DNA of 64,000 nt from a virus, in the IMG/VR virus record IMGVR_UViG_3300005518_000003, positions 1-64,000 of that record; one strand, given 5' to 3'. The translations under genes and the position numbers were made by a program. The number at the start of each line of letters is the position of its first letter. Position 1 is the first letter of the stretch. Below the pieces are notes generated by a model that was not told where the DNA came from, did no database searches, and saw nothing but the letters and a program-made list of their open reading frames with translations. Positions 11,877-34,838 of this stretch are shown piece by piece.

Positions 11877-12218
11877 TTAGCTGACGGGCGTCACCCGTGT
11901 GCCACCTGTCGTCCCGGTGGTCAGCCGCTCGGTGTATTTGATTTCGCCTGGTCCCGCGGGTTCTTCGCGAAACCAATCGTTTCCTTCGCGCGCGAAACAG
12001 ATCGGTTCGCTCATTTCCACCTGATCACGGTGGAGAAGACCAATCGGCACGCCTTCTTCGATCAAGTAGGGGACCTCGAGCGTTCGAAACTCGGAGTTGC
12101 CGCGGAGCATGTGACGGAGGTCCATGCCGCCGTACAGCGCAGGCTTCGGACGCAGGAAGGGGAAGATCGCGTACACGATCGCCAAGAGTCCGGCGACGAT
12201 GAAGTTGCGACGTTCCAT
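11877..12218 (-). CDS. Small membrane/Tat-like protein containing a copied segment of the putative major capsid protein
   Basis: MERRNF + hydrophobic helix, then YGGMDLRHMLRGNSEFR..PY.I..G.PIGL shared with 16008..17390. Confidence 0.7.
   Translation of the reverse strand: MERRNFIVAGLLAIVYAIFPFLRPKPALYGGMDLRHMLRGNSEFRTLEVPYLIEEGVPIGLLHRDQVEMSEPICFAREGNDWFREEPAGPGEIKYTERLTTGTTGGTRVTPVS
12096..12134. repeat. 39-bp exact direct repeat, copy 1 (copy 2 at 16437-16475)
   Basis: gttgccgcggagcatgtgacggaggtccatgccgccgta at both sites. Confidence 0.95.
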
Positions 12219-16007: not shown

Positions 16008-17390
16008 TTAGATGTTGACGAAGCCGCACTCGCACTCCGAGCAGAGTGCATCGCGCGCGTCCGCGTTGTTGCGGAGGAACGTCATGAGGTCGCCGTCGAG
16101 CTCGCGGCCCTTGACGAGCATCGAGAGCTTGAGGTCGCCCATCTTGTAGAAGGCGCGCTCCGCGAAGACCGCCTGCGAGTAGTTGACGATCGCCGCGGGC
16201 GGCACGTCGAGCGATTGCTCGAGCATGACCGGCGAGCCGCTGACCGTTCCGCCGAAGTTGATGTTCGTCGCGTCGACGATGAACGGAGGAATCACGCCGT
16301 TGCCCTGACGGCCCTGCGTGACCGAGAGGTAGTCGCGCATGATGTCGCCCTGGGTGTCGTCGACCTGCTGGAGGACGAGACCGATCGGGATGCCTGCGCC
16401 GATGATGTACGGCAAATCGAGCTTTCGGAACTCGCTGTTGCCGCGGAGCATGTGACGGAGGTCCATGCCGCCGTAGGTGACGGGCGCGAGCTCGAACGCG
16501 CGCGACGGACGGAATTCACCGACCGGTACGCCGCCGACCGTGAGCACGCCCTCGCGGATGAAGTCGATCTTGAGGAAGTCGAACGCCGTTCCGAGCGAGT
16601 CGTAGTAGTCGTTCGTGCGACGAATCTCGGCGAGAACTGCGTCCTCGCTGAGACCCGACGAGCCGTCCTGAGCGTTCGGCGGCATGTACGCCGTGTGACG
16701 GAGGATTTCGTCGAGGATGTTCCACTTCGTGCCGATCGCCCAGCGGAGATCGTACGCGCGCACGAGGTGCCACGCGACGTAGTTGGCCCACGCACCCCAC
16801 TGAAGGATGGCAGGACGCATGAACTGCGTCGGCGTCTGACCGTCGAAATTGTCACCGAGGGCTCCGTTCACGATGTCGGCGACGGTGAAGACATCGGGGC
16901 TCGGCGGCTTCGCTTGGCCGACGACCGGGTGCGTCCACGCGTTGCCGAGAATCGACCACGACTTCGGCTCGGGTTCGAGGTGAAATCCGATCGCGCACGC
17001 GAGCATGTGGGTGTTGAGCTCGCCGTTCTGCGGCATCGTCGATTCGACGAATGCCACACCTTCGACGCTCTTCGAATTTCCGAAGAGATCGATCTCGCTC
17101 GAGAAGTTCTTCTCGATCGCCTGGTCGGTGATCGGGCCGACGAGCGTCCAGCGCGTTTGATGGATCGTGTCCATCGCGTAGGACGCGCAGTCCATCGAGC
17201 TCTTGAGGAGGTTCGTGACGCCAACCGCGCCAAGACCCTTCTTCACGCCGCCTTCGTAAGAGCGGACCTTCTCGATGCTGATCGGCTCGCCAAGGCCGAC
17301 TTTCTTGATCTCGATCTCCCGCTTGATTTGGCGGAACTTCGGGCGGAACGGGTGTTTCGGAGTCGACGGTTTGGCAAGTGCGGTGTCCAT
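16008..17390 (-). CDS. Putative major capsid protein (non-HK97; jelly-roll suspected)
   Basis: Appears to have the strongest C/G third-position bias in the window, AGGAG RBS, flanking RNA hairpins, beta-rich, central in the structural cluster; fold not verifiable by eye. Confidence 0.55.
   Translation of the reverse strand: MDTALAKPSTPKHPFRPKFRQIKREIEIKKVGLGEPISIEKVRSYEGGVKKGLGAVGVTNLLKSSMDCASYAMDTIHQTRWTLVGPITDQAIEKNFSSEIDLFGNSKSVEGVAFVESTMPQNGELNTHMLACAIGFHLEPEPKSWSILGNAWTHPVVGQAKPPSPDVFTVADIVNGALGDNFDGQTPTQFMRPAILQWGAWANYVAWHLVRAYDLRWAIGTKWNILDEILRHTAYMPPNAQDGSSGLSEDAVLAEIRRTNDYYDSLGTAFDFLKIDFIREGVLTVGGVPVGEFRPSRAFELAPVTYGGMDLRHMLRGNSEFRKLDLPYIIGAGIPIGLVLQQVDDTQGDIMRDYLSVTQGRQGNGVIPPFIVDATNINFGGTVSGSPVMLEQSLDVPPAAIVNYSQAVFAERAFYKMGDLKLSMLVKGRELDGDLMTFLRNNADARDALCSECECGFVNI
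16437..16475. repeat. 39-bp exact direct repeat, copy 2
   Basis: Identical to 12096-12134. Confidence 0.95.
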
Positions 17391-17455
17391 GCTGTTCTCC
17401 TCTGCTCTCGTGGTTGCCGCAGCCGGGTCACGAGGTGCAGTTTGGTTTTTTCAAT

Positions 17456-17493
17456 GCCTCAGCCCCTCGGGCTTGCGCCGTTGGGGCTCTGGC
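17456..17493 (-). promoter_or_regulatory. GNRA hairpin upstream of the capsid gene, homologous to 15941-15977
   Basis: 15-bp exact match gcctcagcccctcgg and compensatory stem changes. Confidence 0.7.
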
Positions 17494-17510
17494 ACGCTAT
17501 GTCGAAGCGG

Positions 17511-19247
17511 TTACTCGGCCGCTTCGTCGTTGCGACGGTGTCTCGACGTTCCGGGGAACCGGAGCGAGGAGTTGTCCTCTTCCACCACGAGTCCGAGACC
17601 GCGCGCCGCGCTGTCGAGAACCTGCGGATGGAATTGTCCGAGCGTCGCGAAGCTGCCGCGATGCTTGGCGATGAGCTGATCGGCGTACTTGCGCTGATCC
17701 GGTGTCGCATGTCCTGCCGCATGCGCAGCGAGCACTTCGCGATTCTTTCGAAGCGCGACGTAGGCTTCTCCGTGCGAGCGTAGGACGTCCGTTGCTCCCG
17801 AAACGTCGCCGAGTCCACGGACTCCCACCGGAGCGTACGCGGAAACCGGAGGGCTTTGTGGCGTCGTCGGAACCATGATGCCCGGAGGCATTTGTTCCGG
17901 CGGAACTTGTGGCTGACGCGAAATCGCCGGAGGCGGCACGAATCCGCCTGGCGGGGTGTACGGGCCTTGATTCACGACGGGCGGATATCCTCCGCCCGGT
18001 GGAATCGTCGGATGCGGACCGCCTTGTGGAAGTTGCATTTGCGGCATCACGCTCGGCCCGGTTGAAGGACCGGACGGAATCATGCTGCGACATCCGCAAG
18101 AACCGCCGAGGCCAGGGTACTGACCGCAGGTCGAGCACGGGGCTCCGGCGAGACCGACCGCCGTGCGCTGTCCGATTTCTCCCGAGAAAAGCTTCTTCCC
18201 GGTCGAGTCGGATGCGCTGTCCTTGAAGAGGTACGCCGCGAGATCGTCGACGGCTTTTCCGACGAGACGAACGGCTGCGCCGAATCCGAAGAACTGAAGC
18301 GCGCTGCGCCCCATCGGCGATCGAATGAACTGCGCGACGACGAGCGGTGTTCCGGCCACGGCGACGCCCGCACCAACGCGCGGAAGGAAGTCGTCCATGA
18401 GCGGAGCTTCGATGAAGCGCATCGCGAGCGCTTGACCTTTGTCGTCCTTGCGTTCTCGCATCGTCACGAGACGATCGATCACGTCGGCAGCGGTGTAACC
18501 GATGGCGCCCGTGACGAGGCCGACGACGAGCTCCCAGCCAGTGACCGGGTTCTCCATCGCTCCGCGACGGGAGTGACGACGGCGACGGAGACGCTCACCC
18601 GTGATGTGTCCGACGAGGCGCGTGCGGTAGCGCTTGCCGTGCGACTTGCCTCCGCGGCGACGTGTGAAACGTCCGCGACGGGTGCGACGCACCTGGCGCG
18701 GGAACTCGCGCGCACGCGCGCGACGACGACGACCACCTCGACGGCGACGGCGGCGGCGCGGAGCTTCGGCTGCACGCGCGTAGCGGCGGCGACGGCGGCG
18801 GCGCGGAGCTTCTCGAGAACGACGTGCGCGACCTCGACGACGGCGACGGCGGCGCGGAGCTTCCTCACGCGATTGACGACGACGACGACGACCACCCTTG
18901 CGACGTTTGCGGGCCATGTGCACGGTCTCCTTGGAATGAGAACGGCGTCTCGCCCGCACGCGAGATCGTTTTCTTCGCTTGAGTGAACCGCGACGGCGGC
19001 GCTTCGTCAAGCCCTCTTCTTTCGCATGACGACGGCGACGGCGTTTGCCGGCACGACGCTTTGCAGCTTTCCCGCCGAAACCAGCCTTGATCTGCGCAGG
19101 AGTCAGCCTGCGTCGTTTTCCTCTTCGCGCCATCTTTCTGCCTCGTTTTCGTGGGGTGTCTGCATGAAGGACCACCGCCCGCCTCGAAGCAGCCTGCTCT
19201 GGCTCGGAACGCGCTCGCGAGAGAATCTCTCGATAGTCGACGGGCAT
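17511..19247 (-). CDS. Protamine-like Arg-rich core protein fused to membrane and Pro-rich segments (alternative start 19133)
   Basis: ~190 aa of poly-Arg blocks with EAPRRRRRRR repeats, then ENPV, hydrophobic helices, a CxxC motif, a Pro-rich linker and GLG motifs. Confidence 0.75.
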   Translation of the reverse strand: MPVDYREILSRARSEPEQAASRRAVVLHADTPRKRGRKMARRGKRRRLTPAQIKAGFGGKAAKRRAGKRRRRRHAKEEGLTKRRRRGSLKRRKRSRVRARRRSHSKETVHMARKRRKGGRRRRRQSREEAPRRRRRRRGRARRSREAPRRRRRRRYARAAEAPRRRRRRRGGRRRRARAREFPRQVRRTRRGRFTRRRGGKSHGKRYRTRLVGHITGERLRRRRHSRRGAMENPVTGWELVVGLVTGAIGYTAADVIDRLVTMRERKDDKGQALAMRFIEAPLMDDFLPRVGAGVAVAGTPLVVAQFIRSPMGRSALQFFGFGAAVRLVGKAVDDLAAYLFKDSASDSTGKKLFSGEIGQRTAVGLAGAPCSTCGQYPGLGGSCGCRSMIPSGPSTGPSVMPQMQLPQGGPHPTIPPGGGYPPVVNQGPYTPPGGFVPPPAISRQPQVPPEQMPPGIMVPTTPQSPPVSAYAPVGVRGLGDVSGATDVLRSHGEAYVALRKNREVLAAHAAGHATPDQRKYADQLIAKHRGSFATLGQFHPQVLDSAARGLGLVVEEDNSSLRFPGTSRHRRNDEAAE

Positions 19248-19322: not shown

Positions 19323-19838
19323 TCACGGAACCACGATTCCGCGGTCATCGACGATGCATCCGTCCGGCAGCTCGATCCGATAGAACTGCTCCGAGGTCTT
19401 TCGACGCCAAAAGGAATAGAGCACCGCGGGTTTCTTGAACGCTCGGCTCTTGAATGGATAGAGAAGAAGCTGCGTGAGATTCTTCGCCTTGTTGAATTTA
19501 TGGTGAAAGAACCCCGGATGCTTTGTGCCTGCTCGGTCGTAGTAGATCTCGTTGATCTCTCCGAGCTTGTGCCACGTGGAAATATTTTCTGGCGGAAGAT
19601 CGATTCCGCCTTCGAACACGGTTGCGCTGCGACCAAAATAATCTGAACCTTCGTCGCTCTCTGTCTTTCCACGATCGAACTCACCGATCAGCAAGCTGCA
19701 CGTGGGCCAGTCTTCACCACTCTCGTCGTAGAGCATCGCCGCGTCGCGAGCCGGCTTGACCCTCTTACTCCCGCTACCGAGACCGATTCCCGGAGCGCGT
19801 AGGTTGATCTCGATCTTGCGTCCCATGCAGATCAGCAT
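19323..19838 (-). CDS. Hypothetical virion-cluster protein
   Basis: 171-aa ORF with N-terminal GIGLG. Confidence 0.6.
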   Translation of the reverse strand: MLICMGRKIEINLRAPGIGLGSGSKRVKPARDAAMLYDESGEDWPTCSLLIGEFDRGKTESDEGSDYFGRSATVFEGGIDLPPENISTWHKLGEINEIYYDRAGTKHPGFFHHKFNKAKNLTQLLLYPFKSRAFKKPAVLYSFWRRKTSEQFYRIELPDGCIVDDRGIVVP

Positions 19839-19844
19839 GGAGCC

Positions 19845-20681
19845 TCACTTCGCTCGACGACTCGCCCACCAAGCTTTGATGTCGTCTTTGTACACAAAGC
19901 CGAGAACACCCGCGGTGACGACTGTTCCGCCAAGCATCCACCAACCCCACGGGAACTCCGGCCCGGCCTTTGGCGTAGTGCATCCGCCAGCCACGAACTT
20001 CTGCGCTTCGAGAAGATCGTCGCGCGCCTTCAAATCTTCCTTCGACCAGGGCGCGTTCGGATTCTGGATGTGATAGTCGACGATTTTGTTGTAGTCCGCA
20101 TGCAATCGAATGAGCTCGCGATCACATTCGATCTTCGAAAGAATGTCGTCGATGACGAGCGACGCGAAGTAGATCAAAGCGATGGCGATCGCTGTAACCG
20201 CAAGCATCTGCGCGATGACGGCAACGATCATCACGGGGATGAGCACCTCGATGTTTCCCGTCGAGTTGTTTTTCATCTGCGTGGCGTCAGCCGGCGTTGG
20301 CGTTTTGATTCCGCGTCGCTTCGCAATAATCTGAAGCGTACGAGCCAGCGTATCTGTCGGATTGTCCGAGCCGCCAGCGCTGATATTTTTGTCGTTCGCG
20401 AGCTTCGCGTTGATCGCACTCGAGACCATGAGCGTGATGAAGTCTTGCTTCGAAGGGTTGTCGTTCGCGATCCACTTTTTGGCGGTGGCTCTTGCATTCG
20501 CGGAGGCGAACGCCTGATCCCACGAGCGGCCCTGTACTTGTGCCCAAAACTGTTTGATGAGTACGTACGGATTGAGCGAAAACGCAGGAAGTTTGAGCGC
20601 TGCGGTGACGTCGTCGATGGGTGCGCCAAGGCCCACGATGCGAAGTGCTTTCTGAAAATCTTCGTAGCGTACGAGGGTCAT
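19845..20681 (-). CDS. Membrane protein (internal and C-terminal TM)
   Basis: GLG leader; long hydrophobic stretch; WGWWMLGGTVVTAGVLGFVY. Confidence 0.7.
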   Translation of the reverse strand: MTLVRYEDFQKALRIVGLGAPIDDVTAALKLPAFSLNPYVLIKQFWAQVQGRSWDQAFASANARATAKKWIANDNPSKQDFITLMVSSAINAKLANDKNISAGGSDNPTDTLARTLQIIAKRRGIKTPTPADATQMKNNSTGNIEVLIPVMIVAVIAQMLAVTAIAIALIYFASLVIDDILSKIECDRELIRLHADYNKIVDYHIQNPNAPWSKEDLKARDDLLEAQKFVAGGCTTPKAGPEFPWGWWMLGGTVVTAGVLGFVYKDDIKAWWASRRAK

Positions 20682-21565
20682 CGGCTTCTCACCTTTCGAA
20701 TGACGACGGCAGCGAGAGCCGACGCAGCGACGATACCACCGCCGACCACGGCCGCCTGCTTGTTCGTGAGCTTCGGAAGTGAGGGCAGATCGGGAAAGAA
20801 ATCGCCAAGCTCACCGAGACCACGAACGAGACCGCGAATCGGCTTCGCGAGCTGCGGTGCTGCGGCTTGGACGCCCTGACCGACGTTATACCAAACCTGT
20901 TCTTGCGGATCCGGACCGAGCACCATCTCGCTCGGAAGTTGATGGTACTGGCCGTCACTTCCAAGACCAAGCACCGGTAGTGCTCCGATTCCGACGAACT
21001 CGGCTTGAAGACCCGCGTACGCCGGATCCTTCCACGGGTTCATGCGTGTCTCACGCGACGCCTTCGCCTTTTCACCCGCCGTGAAGCGCGGCGTGGTCGC
21101 ATCGAGTGGAAACCATTTCCCATCTTCGAGTTTCACTTCGCAAATCACGTGCTGTTGATGCTCCGACCCGAAGAACTGGCGAACAATCTCAACTTCGAGT
21201 CCCGACGCCGCGCAAAGCGACGCGAGTGCCGTCACGAAGCCATCGCAATCCTCGATCGGAATGCACGCCAAGGCCCCTTCAACGCAGAGCGTGATCGGCG
21301 CGGCTTGGATCAACTCCGTGCCCGGTGGATCGTGCGTGTACCCAATGCTTCGTTTGCAATGGTTGAAGTGCGCGGTCGCTTTCTCTTTGTTCGTTCGCGG
21401 AAACATCGCTTGGCGAAGGATGTTGCCCGCGAAGCTGCGAAAAATTGGCATGGGAGCAGCCTCCCGAACCTTTTCGCAGATTTTGTGCAGCGACTTTTGG
21501 ATCCCTTCCTCGCCGTCCGGATACGACTCACGAAGGTACGGAACGCCAGCGGAGGAGGTGTTCAT
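20678..21565 (-). CDS. Transglutaminase-like (papain-fold) cysteine protease with C-terminal TM
   Basis: Y..DP.G.E, EDCDG (Cys), QHVICEV (His), WFPLDAT (Asp) triad order. Confidence 0.85.
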   Translation of the reverse strand: MNTSSAGVPYLRESYPDGEEGIQKSLHKICEKVREAAPMPIFRSFAGNILRQAMFPRTNKEKATAHFNHCKRSIGYTHDPPGTELIQAAPITLCVEGALACIPIEDCDGFVTALASLCAASGLEVEIVRQFFGSEHQQHVICEVKLEDGKWFPLDATTPRFTAGEKAKASRETRMNPWKDPAYAGLQAEFVGIGALPVLGLGSDGQYHQLPSEMVLGPDPQEQVWYNVGQGVQAAAPQLAKPIRGLVRGLGELGDFFPDLPSLPKLTNKQAAVVGGGIVAASALAAVVIRKVRSR

Positions 21566-21568
21566 CGA

Positions 21569-21961
21569 TCAGTCCTGAATGCACATATACGGGAAGTTCG
21601 GCATTCCCGTAGGAACGGAGTGATATCCCGGAGGACACGGATTCGCTTTCGGGTTGGAAAGATTCTGCGCGAGCTGACTCGCAACATTTGCAAGATTGAC
21701 GGGTTGCAATTGCGGCGGCGGCTGCGGTGGTGGCGTCGTATCGACCGGCTTGACGTTTCCAGGCGGACCGGTTGTCGTCGGCGTCGATCCAGGAGGAAGC
21801 GGTTGCTTTCCGCTCGCGATGTCCTCGGTCGTCGATTTCTTCGTAAGGTAGTTCGTGAGGAGAACGGCGACGGTCGTTGTTATCGCGGCTGTTGCCCCGG
21901 CAATAAGGAGCTGCATCCCCGTGCTCTCGACCGGATTTCTTCGCGCTCTTCGCATCACCAC
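21569..21961 (-). CDS. Small membrane protein
   Basis: RRARRNPV, then TM, then Pro-rich tail. Confidence 0.65.
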   Translation of the reverse strand: MVMRRARRNPVESTGMQLLIAGATAAITTTVAVLLTNYLTKKSTTEDIASGKQPLPPGSTPTTTGPPGNVKPVDTTPPPQPPPQLQPVNLANVASQLAQNLSNPKANPCPPGYHSVPTGMPNFPYMCIQD

Positions 21962-22533
21962 ACCGGAAGCGGGTTGGCTGGGAGCAGAAACCCAATCTGC
22001 GAAGCGATGGCTTGAACGCTCTTATAGAGCGCGTTGATCAACTCCGAAGAGAGCTGGAGCCCTTTCATCGCGTTCACCCATGCGGCAACGTCGTTCAAGA
22101 GCTGTTGGTTATTCTGCTGGTTCGGCTGACCGTACGCTTGCGGATTCGGCGCGGGCGGTGGTGTTCCGCCTCCTCCGCCTCCGCCTGGTGGAAGAGTTTT
22201 TCCACCGCCACCCATTTGCGCTGAACTTGGACGCAGCGCGAAGTAGAGGCCCGTCCCTAGGATGGCTGCACCGCCGAGACCACCGAGGATGTAGAGCGTC
22301 GATTTTTTCATGACCGGATTGCTGCGTGCACTTCTTCGGCGTGCGCGTCGACGTTTTACGTAGCGACGAGAATAATCGCGTCGATCAAGGCTTGCAGATC
22401 CACGCGAACCGTGAGGAAGCCATCGCAGAGCTTCTCGTTTGTTCCTCGCTTGGACGTAAAAGTACGACGACCTGCTTTCCCCAGGATAGCGGTAGGTCAC
22501 CTTGTACGATTTGAAATCCCACATCGCGGGCAT
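21955..22533 (-). CDS. Basic membrane protein
   Basis: Arg-rich segment, RSNPV, TM LYILGGLGGAAILGTGLYFAL. Confidence 0.65.
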   Translation of the reverse strand: MPAMWDFKSYKVTYRYPGESRSSYFYVQARNKREALRWLPHGSRGSASLDRRDYSRRYVKRRRARRRSARSNPVMKKSTLYILGGLGGAAILGTGLYFALRPSSAQMGGGGKTLPPGGGGGGGTPPPAPNPQAYGQPNQQNNQQLLNDVAAWVNAMKGLQLSSELINALYKSVQAIASQIGFLLPANPLPVW

Positions 22534-22597
22534 CCCTCTTTCACGCACGACGCGCCCGCACGAGCGCCTGCATGTCGTCAGCATACGACGAGGTGGG

Positions 22598-27427: not shown

Positions 27428-29377
27428 CTACCGGGAACGCACCTTGTGAAGCTTTTTGTCGGCGAACGAATAGAACTCGCCTTCGCCCATCACCACGTGG
27501 TCGATGAACGCGATTCCAGAGGCTTTGCAAGCATTTTTCATTGCTTTGGTCAGGTCGGCATCGGCATCCGAAAAATCCGCTCCGCCGCTCGGATGGTTGT
27601 GCAGGATCGCAAGCCCTTTCGCGCCGCGATCGATGGCCGGCTTGAGGACGTCAGCAGGATCGACGGCAACGCGATCGCGCTGACCTACGTGAACGATGGC
27701 GACCCCGCGGAGGTCGGAATGGATATCGAGCAGGATCGCGCAGAGGTGCTCCTTGTCCTGCTTCGAAGCCCACGGATGCATCATGTTGTAGATGTCGCGT
27801 GAATTCTTGATCGGACCGATTTGTTGCGCGACCTCGCGAATCTCTCGAAAGTCATCCGCGTTGCGCTCGACCTTCACGAACGGAATTCCATCCGTCACCT
27901 CAACGGGATTCTCACCCACGTGTTTTGCATGTGGCCAGTGCTGTCGCGCGCTTGCTCGTACTTGATCTTCAGATTCACCACGAATGATGTTGATCGAGTA
28001 CCCGTGACGATCACGCGCAACCGCTTCCCACTCTTGGCGGACTTCGTCGTACGCGATCTCTACGGTCACGACCTTTCGCTCGCGTCCCTCGGCCGCCCCG
28101 CCACATCCGTGCTCGCAGCCGCATTCGTTCGCTTCACGCGAGATGCCACCAGGAACACCTCGTTGCGGATCCAACTTAGACAAAGCCTCGGCATTGCTCG
28201 GGAGCTTCCTCACCCGCTTACCAGTGTTTGGCCAGTGATAGAGCCCCTTCTTGTAAAAGAGCTCGCGCTCGGTGTAGCTGCCGTCATCCCGCGGCGTGTA
28301 CGTCCGAACGACCCATTTCTTTTTGTCGTCCCAATACTTCACGAAGTGCGTCGCTGAGAACATTCCACGATGAGCTTCATGGCGAAGCGCATCGTCGATG
28401 TTGTTGAAGTCGCGCGCTTCACGTGGCCCGCTCTCTGGAGGAAGTAGTGGAGGAGTCTCCGGTCCCGAGTGGAGAATGAGATGCTCCGATTTCATCTTGC
28501 CTTTAGAGCCGTCGCGCCAGAGAACGGTGATCTTTTCGCCTTCGACGGAGATCACGACGCCGGGATTGAGTTTCTTTGCAAGCCTTGGAAGAACGCCAGG
28601 CGCAAGCTGCACGTCGTCACCGCGTTGGAAATCGCGCGCCTGGACTGGGTTCTCGCGGAGCAACCGATCGACGCCCGACTTCGCCTGTCGCAACGCCTCA
28701 CCACGTGTGGTCGCACCCCAATGACCTCCACGAACGATGGCCGACCACCACGTGGTTCCGTCGTCCATGAGATATTTTTCGAGTCGAATGTTCTCGCCGT
28801 GGTAGTCGACCGTCTCGCGTTGTTGGATTCGATCGCGCGCCTCGACGGGGTTCTCGCGAACAAACGAGACGCTCGGACGCACCGCAGGCTGCGAATTCGC
28901 AAAAGCTTCTGCTTCGCCTTTCGTCTTGAACGGGCCGTGATACTCGCTGCTCCGATCACTTGGTCTGCGGCCGTATGCGTACCAGACCGTGCTCCCGTCT
29001 TTCGGACGCTCTGATGGATGCATCTGATCACTCGAAACGATTCGCCAAGGAATCGGTTGCCTCCATGCCGGCTGAGGACCGCGACGAGGATTCTCTCGCG
29101 CACCCGGACGTCGGATCAGTCCAATGTGCACCGCGTAGTCGTACGCGCTCTCGTGCATCTTTCGTGGATTGAGGAAGCCGTCTTGAATCGCTTCGCCGAC
29201 TTGATCATCCCACCACTCAATGATGGTCGCGTCGTTCTTCGCGTTGATCAGCTCGACGTGTGCTCGGTCACGCTCCTCCCAGGTCGAGAGCCGCGTGTCA
29301 CTGAGAGACAATTCGGGCACGGAATGACGTCCACGGCGACGGGCTTCTTCGGCGGCGGCGGGATTCATTCGAGGCAT
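27428..29377 (-). CDS. Modular polyprotein-like protein with C-terminal RadC/JAB domain
   Basis: KEHL..ILLD, HNHPSG..FSDAD..LT..M...GI.FIDHVV JAB motif; upstream modules separated by ENP motifs. Confidence 0.85.
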   Translation of the reverse strand: MPRMNPAAAEEARRRGRHSVPELSLSDTRLSTWEERDRAHVELINAKNDATIIEWWDDQVGEAIQDGFLNPRKMHESAYDYAVHIGLIRRPGARENPRRGPQPAWRQPIPWRIVSSDQMHPSERPKDGSTVWYAYGRRPSDRSSEYHGPFKTKGEAEAFANSQPAVRPSVSFVRENPVEARDRIQQRETVDYHGENIRLEKYLMDDGTTWWSAIVRGGHWGATTRGEALRQAKSGVDRLLRENPVQARDFQRGDDVQLAPGVLPRLAKKLNPGVVISVEGEKITVLWRDGSKGKMKSEHLILHSGPETPPLLPPESGPREARDFNNIDDALRHEAHRGMFSATHFVKYWDDKKKWVVRTYTPRDDGSYTERELFYKKGLYHWPNTGKRVRKLPSNAEALSKLDPQRGVPGGISREANECGCEHGCGGAAEGRERKVVTVEIAYDEVRQEWEAVARDRHGYSINIIRGESEDQVRASARQHWPHAKHVGENPVEVTDGIPFVKVERNADDFREIREVAQQIGPIKNSRDIYNMMHPWASKQDKEHLCAILLDIHSDLRGVAIVHVGQRDRVAVDPADVLKPAIDRGAKGLAILHNHPSGGADFSDADADLTKAMKNACKASGIAFIDHVVMGEGEFYSFADKKLHKVRSR

Positions 29378-32850: not shown

Positions 32851-33060
32851 CTAGTTTTTCGGCTTTCGCTTTTGATCCCAACACGCGAGCGCTTCTTCGA
32901 TTGCTTCGACGAGTGTTCCGCCTTCACCTGGAAACACGCCAAGCTCGGGGTCGTCGGCTGCGTATAGCCACACGACGATGCATGCGTTTTGCGTACTGAA
33001 GATCTGTAAGCTCAGATCGCGCTCGCGCAGAGCTGCTTCGAGCTCTTCGATCGTCTTCAT
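32851..33060 (-). CDS. Small hypothetical protein
   Basis: 4-nt overlap with the ATPase stop. Confidence 0.5.
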   Translation of the reverse strand: MKTIEELEAALRERDLSLQIFSTQNACIVVWLYAADDPELGVFPGEGGTLVEAIEEALACWDQKRKPKN

Positions 33061-34838
33061 GCGTCCTCCGCAAGCATCTCTGCCATCTTCACGCGCTCGC
33101 GAGACGTCTCTTCGGCGAGCTCGCGTCGTGTGAGCCTCTGGATGTACGCATTGCGCGAAGACGTTGCCCAGCGCTCTTCCTCCAGCGCTTCCCCAATCTC
33201 TTCGCGCGTCATGTCCTTTGGATACGCGTCAGCGAGAACGCGAAGACACTTTGCTTCGGGTCCTGGAAGCTTGCGAAGCCAGTGTTCGAGCAGCGCTACG
33301 CCGGTCGGAAGCTCTTCGTAGTCATCGCCAAGCCATTCGACGCCCTCCAGAGTGATGCGGTGGCGATCTCCGACCTCCTCAAAGATGCCGGCATTCCGAC
33401 CGCGCTGGAAATACGCGTTGCGTGTGCTTCCCTTCGCCCCGGTGATTTGTGTGATCTGCGAGCGCGTCACTCCGCTTTCTCCGAACTGCGCGACCGCAGC
33501 CACGAACGACCGCGGAACTTTCACTTCTCCTTCAACCTTCGACGCATCCCCATTCGACTGAGGTCTCGACGCAACCCTCTTCTTTTCTTTTGGTACGACG
33601 ACGATCGCCGGAACAACGATCTTTCCGACAGCGAGATGTTGCATCTGCTGGCGAAGTCGCTTGAGCTCATCGAGCGCTGACTGCGCCATACCCTCGGCTC
33701 GGAGCGTTTTCTCTTTCGCATCTTCGGTTGCTTTGCGCGACGAACCCAAAGCTTCAACCAACGCGTCGACCTGCTTCTCGAGTTTCTTTTCTTGTCGCTT
33801 CGTAAGAACCGGTACCTCGATACGCTTTGGGATACGCGCGGGAGATGGATCGGGTTGAAGCTTCTTGAATTTTCCCGCTGCCTCGAGCTCCTTTTTGAGT
33901 CGCATGACTTCTGCCTTCAATGCTTTCGGATCGTTCGCTTTCGCTTGTTCTACGGTCGCCGCCATCTGCGCAGAGAGCGCACCAAGATCGACGTCAGCAA
34001 GTGTCTTGGGAGGCTTGACCTTCTTCCCATCCGGCGTCCGACTGGAGTCGAACGTCTTTCGTTCACGGAATGAAACGCATTCGAGCATCCCGTTCATGAG
34101 ACCTGGCGCCCAAAACCAACCCGTGCCGCGTTCGAGCGACGAAAGCGTTCCTAGCACTTGCTTTTGCTCTTCTTTGGTCCCGTTGTGTTCGATCCAGTCC
34201 CCGAATGCGTTGATGTCCTGCGGTCCCGTGAGGCGAAACGCGATCAAGATCTCGATTTGTGTGAGCACGTCTTTCGCGATGCGTGCAGGACGCTGCGAAA
34301 TGAGCGTCACACCGATGCCGCGCGTACGACCACGCAGAACGAAATCGTTGATCGCCCCAACGAGCGGAAGCATGTCCGCAGAATCGACGCGCTGCGGGAC
34401 GAAGAGATCGCACTCATCGATGACGATGTGAAGAGGCTCTCGTTGCTTGTTCTTGAGGAGGTAGAGCTTATCGGCGAAGTCGCGAACGAACCGGCGCATC
34501 GCGCTCTTCGAGAAGTCGGAGAGATCGAGCACACACGAGAGACGATTTTCGACGACGTACTCGGCGAGGACGGTACCTCCACGCTCCTCGAGTGGCATAT
34601 CCGCATGGAGACCCCCGAAGATCGGAATCGGATAGCCGCCTTCCTTTTTTCCATTGCTCCCCGCACGAAGCCCCCAGGCTCCGCCTGTCGGATCGATGAC
34701 AATGGTCTGCACCTTTGCGTCGAGTAGCTCCTCGACGAGGAGCATCCCGGTGTGGGTCTTACCCGAACCGCGCTTACCGATGATTCCGATGGTCTCGGTT
34801 GCGATGTTCGGGATCTTGAGCTTGGGGGCGAGACGCAC
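33057..34838 (-). CDS. HerA/FtsK-superfamily ATPase (DUF87-like) with coiled coil and probable wHTH C-terminus
   Basis: GKRGSGKT Walker A, VIDPTG, IVIDECD Walker B, RGRTRGIG, ISQRPA. Confidence 0.9.
   Translation of the reverse strand: MRLAPKLKIPNIATETIGIIGKRGSGKTHTGMLLVEELLDAKVQTIVIDPTGGAWGLRAGSNGKKEGGYPIPIFGGLHADMPLEERGGTVLAEYVVENRLSCVLDLSDFSKSAMRRFVRDFADKLYLLKNKQREPLHIVIDECDLFVPQRVDSADMLPLVGAINDFVLRGRTRGIGVTLISQRPARIAKDVLTQIEILIAFRLTGPQDINAFGDWIEHNGTKEEQKQVLGTLSSLERGTGWFWAPGLMNGMLECVSFRERKTFDSSRTPDGKKVKPPKTLADVDLGALSAQMAATVEQAKANDPKALKAEVMRLKKELEAAGKFKKLQPDPSPARIPKRIEVPVLTKRQEKKLEKQVDALVEALGSSRKATEDAKEKTLRAEGMAQSALDELKRLRQQMQHLAVGKIVVPAIVVVPKEKKRVASRPQSNGDASKVEGEVKVPRSFVAAVAQFGESGVTRSQITQITGAKGSTRNAYFQRGRNAGIFEEVGDRHRITLEGVEWLGDDYEELPTGVALLEHWLRKLPGPEAKCLRVLADAYPKDMTREEIGEALEEERWATSSRNAYIQRLTRRELAEETSRERVKMAEMLAEDA

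Follow-up and report, generated by a model that had tools for sequence, protein, structure and literature searches.

A conserved polybasic protein with a putative membrane anchor in the structural gene block of an uncultured, apparently tailless soil virus

In the textbook view of bacteriophages, a motor packs naked double-stranded DNA (dsDNA) and small cations neutralise its charge. Polybasic segments that are packaged with the genome and neutralise charge occur in Microviridae protein J and in the C-terminal domain of the hepadnavirus core, and adenovirus pVII and pre-mu (pX) are Arg-rich virion precursors that the adenoviral cysteine protease processes. DNA condensation by protamine-like proteins is a feature of adeno-, asfar- and baculoviruses; for phage dsDNA, evidence of a sizeable share of basic proteins in charge neutralisation is lacking (PMC3281028). 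A precedent among prokaryotic viruses is found in the Portogloboviridae, whose dsDNA is complexed with protein and enclosed by a lipid layer within an icosahedral shell (PMC8459092). Here, a polybasic gene of the IMG/VR virus record IMGVR_UViG_3300005518_000003 is described. The stretch analysed (the window) comprised bases 1–64000 of this complete record of 78,563 bp, which carries direct terminal repeats. The product of the gene joins a long Arg-rich arm to a domain of three predicted helices. Judged from sequence, there is a probability of about 0.5 that it is a virion-module protein of a tailless virus, with helices that would be anchored in lipid and a polycationic arm that would bind the genome. 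Protamine-like core proteins are known in eukaryotic viruses; a membrane-anchored form appears not to have been described for cultured phages, and the literature on internal-membrane phages yielded no description of a membrane-anchored protamine-like or arginine-rich protein.

The arm comprised 194 amino acids (aa; residues 39–232), including 84 Arg, 14 Lys, 10 Glu and no Asp, with eight runs of 4–7 Arg. This bears out the first-pass annotation, made from the sequence alone, which had described a tract of Arg blocks of about 190 aa (19133–18560). By composition the arm is protamine-like, a class marked by more than 40% Arg in clusters of 4–8, nearly no acidic residues and disorder; for residues 196–236 AlphaFold2 (AF2) gave a predicted local distance difference test (pLDDT) score of 55–60 without secondary structure. 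The three DNA-level repeats that had been noted in the tract, there as encoding EAPRRRRRR, were equally clear: a 17-nt core, GAAGCTCCGCGCCGCCG, each copy of which encodes EAPRRRR, was present in three exact copies (18751–18767, 18796–18812 and 18847–18863) and in none of 100 shuffles, and Tandem Repeats Finder (TRF) detected a 45-nt period. The SPRRR repeats of the hepatitis B virus core resemble these (E/S)-x-P-R-R-R-R repeats. Unlike the present protein, the Microviridae and hepadnavirus proteins serve single-stranded DNA or pregenomic RNA in small capsids and have no membrane anchor, and no homology links them to it.

Word searches returned 15 protein matches to the polybasic protein, and 17 loci were fetched. 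At least 440 representative clusters were related to it at E ≤ 1e-3, 175 of them at E ≤ 1e-30. Among 83 long representatives, the arm had a median length of 203 aa (88–377), an R+K fraction of 0.27–0.52 and a net charge of +21 to +123; R/(R+K) ranged from 0.20 to 0.94, with the window protein at the Arg-rich extreme. Across the sequences compared, the charge of the arm is conserved while its sequence varies. One semi-conserved module (residues 179–218) had a counterpart in distant relatives, VPRKTKKVYVVAAEKPRRRR, and was duplicated in one homologue (P0011). All 13 loci with enough upstream DNA carried a long K/R-rich arm in frame before the conserved domain, without a stop. The arm meets this domain at a family junction that reads [Y/G]-A-M-E-N-P-L-x-G-x-E.

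The five other frames of the tract contained stops or encoded poly-Val/Ser/Thr, and its Arg codons were CGT and CGC, the same preference as in neighbouring genes. A relative from another sequencing run had a 3-nt insertion and an 85-for-82-nt replacement inside the tract, both keeping the frame, which is weak evidence given the low depth of these contigs. Since the other frames are closed or of low complexity, the codons fit those of the neighbours, the downstream domain is conserved and the arm is in frame in 13 of 13 loci, the Arg frame is, on sequence grounds, the translated one. Translation in another frame and homologues lacking the Arg tract were the two outcomes that the first-pass annotation had set against its own reading; instead, the Arg frame was the sole open one and the polybasic arm was a conserved feature of the family.

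Database searches placed the protein in no described family. Pfam and PHROGs searches with the polybasic protein and nine neighbours returned nothing except Transglut_core on the gene at 20678–21565, and 17 aligned family members had no Pfam match. Among PDB sequences, the family profile matched just designed repeat proteins, in short stretches judged spurious, and ESM Atlas scores (≤0.84, to unnamed viral clusters) were at noise level.

Downstream of the arm, the previously noted succession of ENPV, hydrophobic helices, CxxC, a Pro-rich linker and GLG sites was confirmed by residue positions (Table 1), with GLG at 379, 478 and 550. From a 94-sequence alignment, AF2 predicted three helices of 25–33 aa with pLDDT above 90. 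Structural look-alikes of this putative anchor were mostly transmembrane (TM) triplets of transporters and channels (Z 5–7, at most 6.9), and a Foldseek search of BFVD with the anchor model returned nothing at E ≤ 1e-3. The strongest argument for a membrane location comes from other proteins of the virus: a signature of a short Arg-rich tail, N-P and a hydrophobic helix (Kyte-Doolittle 1.6–2.2) was found in at least five small window proteins and in six from related loci, for example RRARRNP-V..., RRSARSNP-V..., MARRRARANP-... and PMRRRARRNP-.... These analogous NP-tail proteins are clearly TM, and the evidence, this analogy included, is no more than suggestive of a membrane domain in the polybasic protein. 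On this reading, the protein would be an extreme member of the NP-tail class of the lineage, its tail having grown from about 8 to about 190 aa. Throughout the lineage, the NP mark may serve as a signal for sorting, topology or docking. What stands of the membrane domain first proposed is a set of three conserved membrane-like predicted helices fused to the arm; their hydropathy is borderline, below 1.6.

Small single-pass NP-tail proteins were located in the window at 21937, 22320, 54109 and 60638, in locus L003 at 3514, 3954, 13096 and 13502, and in locus L015 at 3815. Among 66 dipeptides tested in the context of a basic tail and TM helix, NP ranked second. A 209-aa protein (21955–22584, reverse strand; net charge of the whole protein +24) was in its design a reduced version of the polybasic protein, running from a basic N-domain through RSNPV, a TM helix and a Gly/Pro-rich linker to a small helical C-domain. 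In distant members of the polybasic family (L003, L013, L018, L019, P0013 and P0015) the C-terminal domain was replaced by a conserved basic-x-N-P-Y-x-W-G tail.

Table 1. Coordinates of the polybasic gene, its parts and its neighbours in the window. Residues are numbered from the start of the long isoform.
Feature	Position	Strand	Observations
Full open reading frame (ORF), 578 aa (long isoform)	17511..19247	-	Sole open frame through tract; homologues found
N-peptide, residues 1–38 (M-x-DY..I..R...E.AA..V)	19134..19247	-	Conserved in 11 loci and at least 32 of 82 long representatives
GAGG Shine-Dalgarno-like site	19141..19144	-	7 nt (AGGCAGAAAG) ahead of internal ATG
Internal in-frame ATG, Met39 'MARRGKRRR'	19131..19133	-	Likely second start, 540-aa short isoform
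Polybasic arm, residues 39–232	18552..19133	-	43% Arg, R+K 50.5%, net +88, no Asp; predicted disordered
Three DNA-level repeats, each encoding E-A-P-R-R-R-R	18751..18863	-	Exact 17-mers; TRF period 45
Semi-conserved arm module, residues 179–218	18594..18713	-	AREFPRQVRRTRRGRF...RLVGHITGE; aligned in family alignment A3
Junction A-M-E-N-P, residues 230–234	18546..18560	-	N+P 113/113, E 106/113, M 81/113, A at -2 64/91
Predicted helix 1, residues 237–262, Gly-zipper-like	18462..18539	-	Invariant E239, G243, G250, D258, R259; Kyte-Doolittle 1.47
Predicted helix 2, residues 283–307	18327..18401	-	Invariant R290, P301; Kyte-Doolittle 1.53
Predicted helix 3, residues 311–343, amphipathic 'RSALQFFGFGA..GK'	18219..18317	-	Invariant R314, L317, Q318, F320, G321, G330, K331
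Cys cluster CxxC...GLG...CxC, residues 371–386	18090..18137	-	Cys 371, 374, 384, 386; C386, G379, G381 conserved
Pro-rich linker, residues 390–470, 32% Pro	17838..18080	-	Pro-rich and length-variable in all relatives
C-terminal helical domain, GLGD 478–481, GLG 550–552	17514..17837	-	In closer clade P0002–P0013; absent from distant loci
Downstream neighbour, 460-aa jelly-roll coat candidate	16008..17390	-	Synteny; AF2 pLDDT 66
Upstream neighbour, conserved 171-aa protein	19323..19838	-	Synteny in 10 loci
TM-anchored transglutaminase-like (papain-fold) protein	20678..21565	-	Pfam PF01841, E=1.7e-6; syntenic

The gene probably has two nested in-frame products, to judge from its sequence and those of its relatives: a long form from 19247, which includes a 38-aa N-peptide, and a short form from 19133, which is preceded by a Shine-Dalgarno-like site. 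The family consensus of the N-peptide was M-x-DYLD-I..R..PEHAA..PVFYE, a recognisable version of which forms residues 1–38 of the window protein, and no stop separated it from the Met39 ATG. A Shine-Dalgarno-like purine box lay 6–11 nt before an ATG-GCN in the window and in 10 of 10 loci, despite differing encoded residues. Database gene calls for 82 long representatives started at the internal Met in 31 cases and included the N-peptide in at least 32; the internal M-A/S-x was kept in 25 of 28 N-peptide forms. The conserved nested start at 19133 is a new observation of this analysis.

The order of the surrounding genes was fixed in more than 10 independent contigs (tblastn): transglutaminase-like gene, variable gene, 171 aa, polybasic gene, 460 aa, 222 aa and 289 aa. 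A position directly upstream of a capsid candidate had been recorded from the window; the end of the polybasic gene lay 120 nt from the 460-aa gene, and this position was conserved in more than 10 loci. The model of the 460-aa protein was a beta-sandwich of modest confidence. Its best matches in an exhaustive structural aligner, all weak and tied with discoidin domains, were jelly-roll capsid chains of viruses with an internal membrane: Haloarcula californiae icosahedral virus 1 (HCIV-1; Z 5.4), Sulfolobus polyhedral virus 1 (SPV1; 4.8), Haloarcula hispanica icosahedral virus 2 (HHIV-2; 4.8), P23-77 (4.2–4.4) and PRD1 P3 (4.2), with a root-mean-square deviation of 3.7 over 132 aligned residues for HCIV-1 (6h9c_D) and 4.1 over 143 for SPV1 (6oj0_T). 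Papillomavirus L1, returned for the model by Foldseek against PDB, was rejected (TM-score below 0.1); nothing else was returned, and nothing at E ≤ 1e-3. On the predicted fold, the 460-aa protein is a reasonable but unproven coat candidate. Together with its two neighbours it is acidic (net -11, -3 and -5; isoelectric points 5.2–5.5).

Searches of viral contigs with the coat candidate alone found no relative, and with an alignment they found one uncultivated virus genome (L003). Homologues of 46–47% identity were present on two contigs of 4.4 and 2.3 kb (L020 and L021) in Chloroflexota and Polyangiaceae metagenome-assembled genomes, both too short for host assignment. About 4 kb from the coat candidate, a 40-aa stretch in a small ORF (12027–12146, reverse strand) was 68% identical to its residues 302–341 (E=1.4e-14). 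The 120-nt spacer (17391–17510) contained a GC-rich hairpin, AGCCCC...GGC-GCAA-GCC...GGGGCT, without a T-run after it. On the other side of the polybasic gene, the 171-aa protein had no Pfam, PHROG or PDB relative; its C-terminus, ...DDRGIVWP, lies directly ahead of the polybasic gene, and in some homologues a TM helix and then N-P are added at the N-terminus. The transglutaminase-like protein has a C-terminal TM anchor, and its Cys107-His139-Asp155 was invariant in five homologues (loci including L003, L006, L015 and L019). Its sequence would suit a role in maturation proteolysis, cross-linking or wall hydrolysis.

The window had a GC content of about 58% and contained phage- or bacterial-type genes for ThyX, AAA_24, a PD-(D/E)XK nuclease, an SF2 helicase, a primase-polymerase/VapE and RadC-JAB. 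A P-loop ATPase ORF (33057–34838) matched DUF87/HerA above the cut-off (28.8 bits, E=1.7e-6), in the Walker region only. Across the whole 78.5-kb genome there was no match at E ≤ 1 to the HK97-type capsid (PF05065) or to terminase (PF03237), and an FtsK/HerA-type ATPase without these two is the combination taken here as one mark of an internal-membrane jelly-roll virus. By gene content the host of the virus is prokaryotic and the virus itself appears tailless; it is an uncultured virus from soil. Two rhizosphere metagenome sequencing runs contained the full stretch and may be where it comes from, and no RNA run was listed among the runs containing it. An excess of read depth at 18700–18830 was due to cross-matching of GC-rich repeats belonging to other organisms.

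PRD1-type phages (Tectiviridae) share with this virus the tailless form, a jelly-roll coat (here a candidate), many small membrane proteins and a HerA/FtsK-type ATPase. In contrast, the present genome is five times larger and without sequence match to deposited phages. PRD1 packs naked DNA by its motor and is not known to have a polybasic core protein. For a lipid membrane in the particle of the present virus, the many small TM proteins encoded in the module speak only indirectly. SPV1 has a jelly-roll shell, and its capsid chain 6oj0_T was among the top coat-candidate matches, which were weak and within noise; unlike the present virus it is archaeal, its genome is about 20 kb, and no sequence similarity between the two was found. 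We know of no report that the SPV1 core protein is a membrane-anchored polyarginine protein.

Glutamate was not placed at random in the arm. The first-pass annotation had pointed to spacers of the A/S-x-E type, and Ala or Ser stood at position -2 of 7 of the 10 tract Glu (AKE, SKE, SRE, SRE, AAE, ARE and AME; shuffle mean 2.4, P=0.002); the remaining Glu were a TGE and, in two EE pairs, the second residue. The DNA repeat accounts for three of the seven A/S-x-E sites, which therefore do not count independently, and the window alone overstates the enrichment. The family context was assessed with 322 Glu in the arms of 82 representatives, counts that are phylogenetically non-independent. At position -2 (P3), Ala reached 29% against a background of 15% (z 7.4) and Ser 15% (z 4.8), while Arg was depleted (z -5.1). 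Position -3 (P4) was enriched in Val, Ile and Met, position +1 in Ala, and position +2 (P2') in Pro (18% against 4%, z 13). Ala, Ser or Gly stood at -2 of 48% of Glu, compared with 25–32% for the control residues T, S, Q, P, G and H. The family motif is [V/I/M]-[A/S]-x-E-x-P, and the junction likewise reads A-M-E. The Glu sites of the arm are, by these counts, conserved non-random motifs, and conservation of the spacers in homologues, which had been suggested as a check, holds to this extent.

T4-type prohead proteases (T4 gp21, phiKZ gp175 and SPN3US gp245) cut after A/S/G-X-E. SPN3US gp245 cuts after A-X-E with Val preferred at P4, a specificity matched by the family [V]-A-x-E and accompanied here by A-M-E at the junction (PMC10052503). 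In contrast to prohead-protease substrates, Pro at P2' lies outside published motifs, and the complete genome, which lacks a detected HK97 capsid, had no match at E ≤ 1 to the S77 (PF03420) or S78 (PF04586) prohead proteases, although a very divergent protease could escape such a search. A search of all 78.5 kb for adenain (Peptidase_C5, PF00770) likewise returned nothing at E ≤ 1; just the transglutaminase-like papain-fold enzyme, unrelated to adenain, was present. Likeness to adenovirus pVII and pX extends to Arg-rich composition, a jelly-roll coat (here a candidate), a papain-fold Cys-His-Asp enzyme encoded in the module and conserved G-L-G sites. The differences are the lack of any sequence relation (none of the 17 members matched Pfam) and of adenain; moreover, adenoviral core proteins are soluble and small and have no membrane anchor, and the present host is prokaryotic. 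The proposal of a protease-matured precursor has in its favour the family-wide A/S-x-E context, which resembles gp245 sites, and against it the lack of a detected S77, S78 or C5 protease.

The N-P of the junction need not be a cut site, since the basic-NP-TM arrangement also marks many small membrane proteins, and after tails of 8–10 aa cutting would serve little purpose. Nor is E-N-P simply a TM cap, because E-N-P-V recurs at domain borders of a soluble protein: a 649-aa RadC-like JAB protein (27428–29377, reverse strand; Pfam E=2e-28) carried four copies of R-E-N-P-V/R (ARENPR, VRENPVEARD, LRENPVQARD and VGENPVE) at what appear to be borders between domains, the same E-N-P as at the junction with no TM helix after it. 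Asn-Pro self-cleavage is known in reovirus mu1 and in the NPTH of FlhB/YscU, and by analogy it is a further possibility at the junction. Eukaryotic 2A-type NPG-P skipping was rejected as an explanation of ENP, being specific to eukaryotic ribosomes and having an incomplete motif here. Taken together, cutting of the arm into protamine-sized peptides is weakly supported by sequence. A broader proposal, which we regard as doubtful, is that the lineage keeps a chromatin-like condensed dsDNA core. The anchored K/R precursor would capture the genome at a lipid layer and then be cut at [A/S]-x-E and/or E-N-P into protamine-sized peptides, by an unrecognised protease or by Asn-Pro self-cleavage, and co-condensation, in place of a packaging motor acting on its own, would fill the particle. 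We regard this mode of packaging as pure speculation.

In the arrangement favoured here, a compact bundle of three Gly/Ala-rich helices (residues 237–343) would sit in the viral lipid layer. The disordered +88 arm of about 190 aa would project from it and bind a polyanion, most probably the 78.5-kb dsDNA genome, neutralising part of its charge and fixing it to the inner layer of the particle. By charge arithmetic, neutralising 10% of the 157,126 phosphates would take about 180 copies, and neutralising 50% about 900. Presence in the virion, membrane insertion, DNA binding and any cleavage are all inferred from the sequence.

Several observations weigh against this arrangement. The best 19-residue Kyte-Doolittle windows of helices 1 and 2 (1.47 and 1.53) fall below the customary 1.6, as do the family averages of helices 1–3 (1.39, 1.14 and 0.97). 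Invariant charged residues lie within the helices, and the scores of the anchor look-alikes are within noise for helical bundles; a soluble helical bundle in place of a membrane anchor is possible. The coat matches (Z ≤ 5.4) score no better than discoidin-type jelly rolls and do not reach the noise guidance of the aligner. Neither the coat candidate nor the anchor domain had a tblastn match in 50,697 GenBank phage records, and there is no cultured relative. The main difficulty concerns topology. The positive-inside rule keeps the +88 arm in the cytoplasm, and in the PRD1 vesicle the cytoplasmic leaflet faces outward, toward the capsid. Given this predicted N-in topology and vesicle orientation, PRD1-type assembly would turn the arm towards the acidic coat and away from the DNA. 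Either the virus assembles in another way than PRD1 does, or the arm would act on coat and lipid as a glue or scaffold.

The latter alternative, which we hold to be possible at a clearly lower level, places the arm between membrane and shell, or makes it an assembly scaffold, gluing anionic lipids and the acidic coat to the vesicle and perhaps being trimmed or removed later. It agrees with the N-in topology expected for a +88 tail before a hydrophobic helix, with the acidity of the coat candidate and its two neighbours, and with the short basic tail and NP that small membrane proteins of the module bear on the same side; the Glu-centred motifs could mark removal sites. Yet the charge of a 190-aa, 43%-Arg arm far exceeds the need for docking, its composition is like that of nucleic-acid condensers, and the variation of arm length and charge in the family is easier to reconcile with non-specific binding of polyanions than with a fixed interface to a protein. 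We consider it unlikely that the protein serves genome delivery as a pilot protein, with helices forming a membrane tube or pore at infection and an arm that escorts the DNA into the cell and shields it from nucleases. Its place in the virion module, the membrane-type helical domain and the nucleic-acid-binding type of arm would all fit, and the invariant charges within the helices (E239, D258, R259, R290, R314 and K331) would suit a channel-like oligomer, but there is no similarity to known tube or ejection proteins, and nothing separates delivery from a static core role, the two being compatible.

Less likely still is a role outside the virion, for instance that of a membrane-bound factor whose task would be to compact or sequester the DNA or RNA of the host, or to organise replication at the membrane. 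Any nucleic acid would be a ligand for a polyarginine arm in the cytoplasm; against such a role, the gene is strictly kept between the 171-aa gene and the coat candidate in a co-oriented structural block, apart from the replication genes at 31–52 kb. Very improbable is an artefact of frame or annotation, in which GC-rich repeats would merely happen to read as Arg and translation would in truth begin at Met231 of MENP. In its favour, 22 of 113 representatives, and likewise the closest relatives P0003–P0009, were called from the Met of M-E-N-P, and a GGAG directly precedes the Met231 ATG. This GGAG is only 2 nt away, however, and the junction Met is replaced by Leu, Ala or Tyr in 29 of 113 representatives. 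The arm is in frame without a stop in all 13 loci with upstream DNA and contains conserved peptide motifs, and a homologue called short (P0089) is identical to the C-terminal part of the ORF of locus L018, which has an arm of 226 aa. The junction Met was rejected as the true start on these grounds. Because of the P0089–L018 pair and the 13 loci with an in-frame arm, the database entries that start at MENP are best read, on sequence, as truncated by gene callers.

The family thus exposes a recurrent gene-calling error, truncation at the junction Met, and offers a marker for the lineage in the invariant A-M-E-N-P junction together with 'RSALQFFGFG'. With at least 440 sequence clusters at E ≤ 1e-3, the lineage is widespread and forms a large, diverse group of uncultured tailless viruses. 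The modular design of polycation and anchor is of possible interest for DNA compaction. If the reading favoured here is true, protein-mediated genome condensation, as in adeno-, baculo- and asfarviruses and in archaeal SPV1, would extend to bacterial viruses, and it could help to explain how jelly-roll viruses might attain genomes of 60–180 kb.

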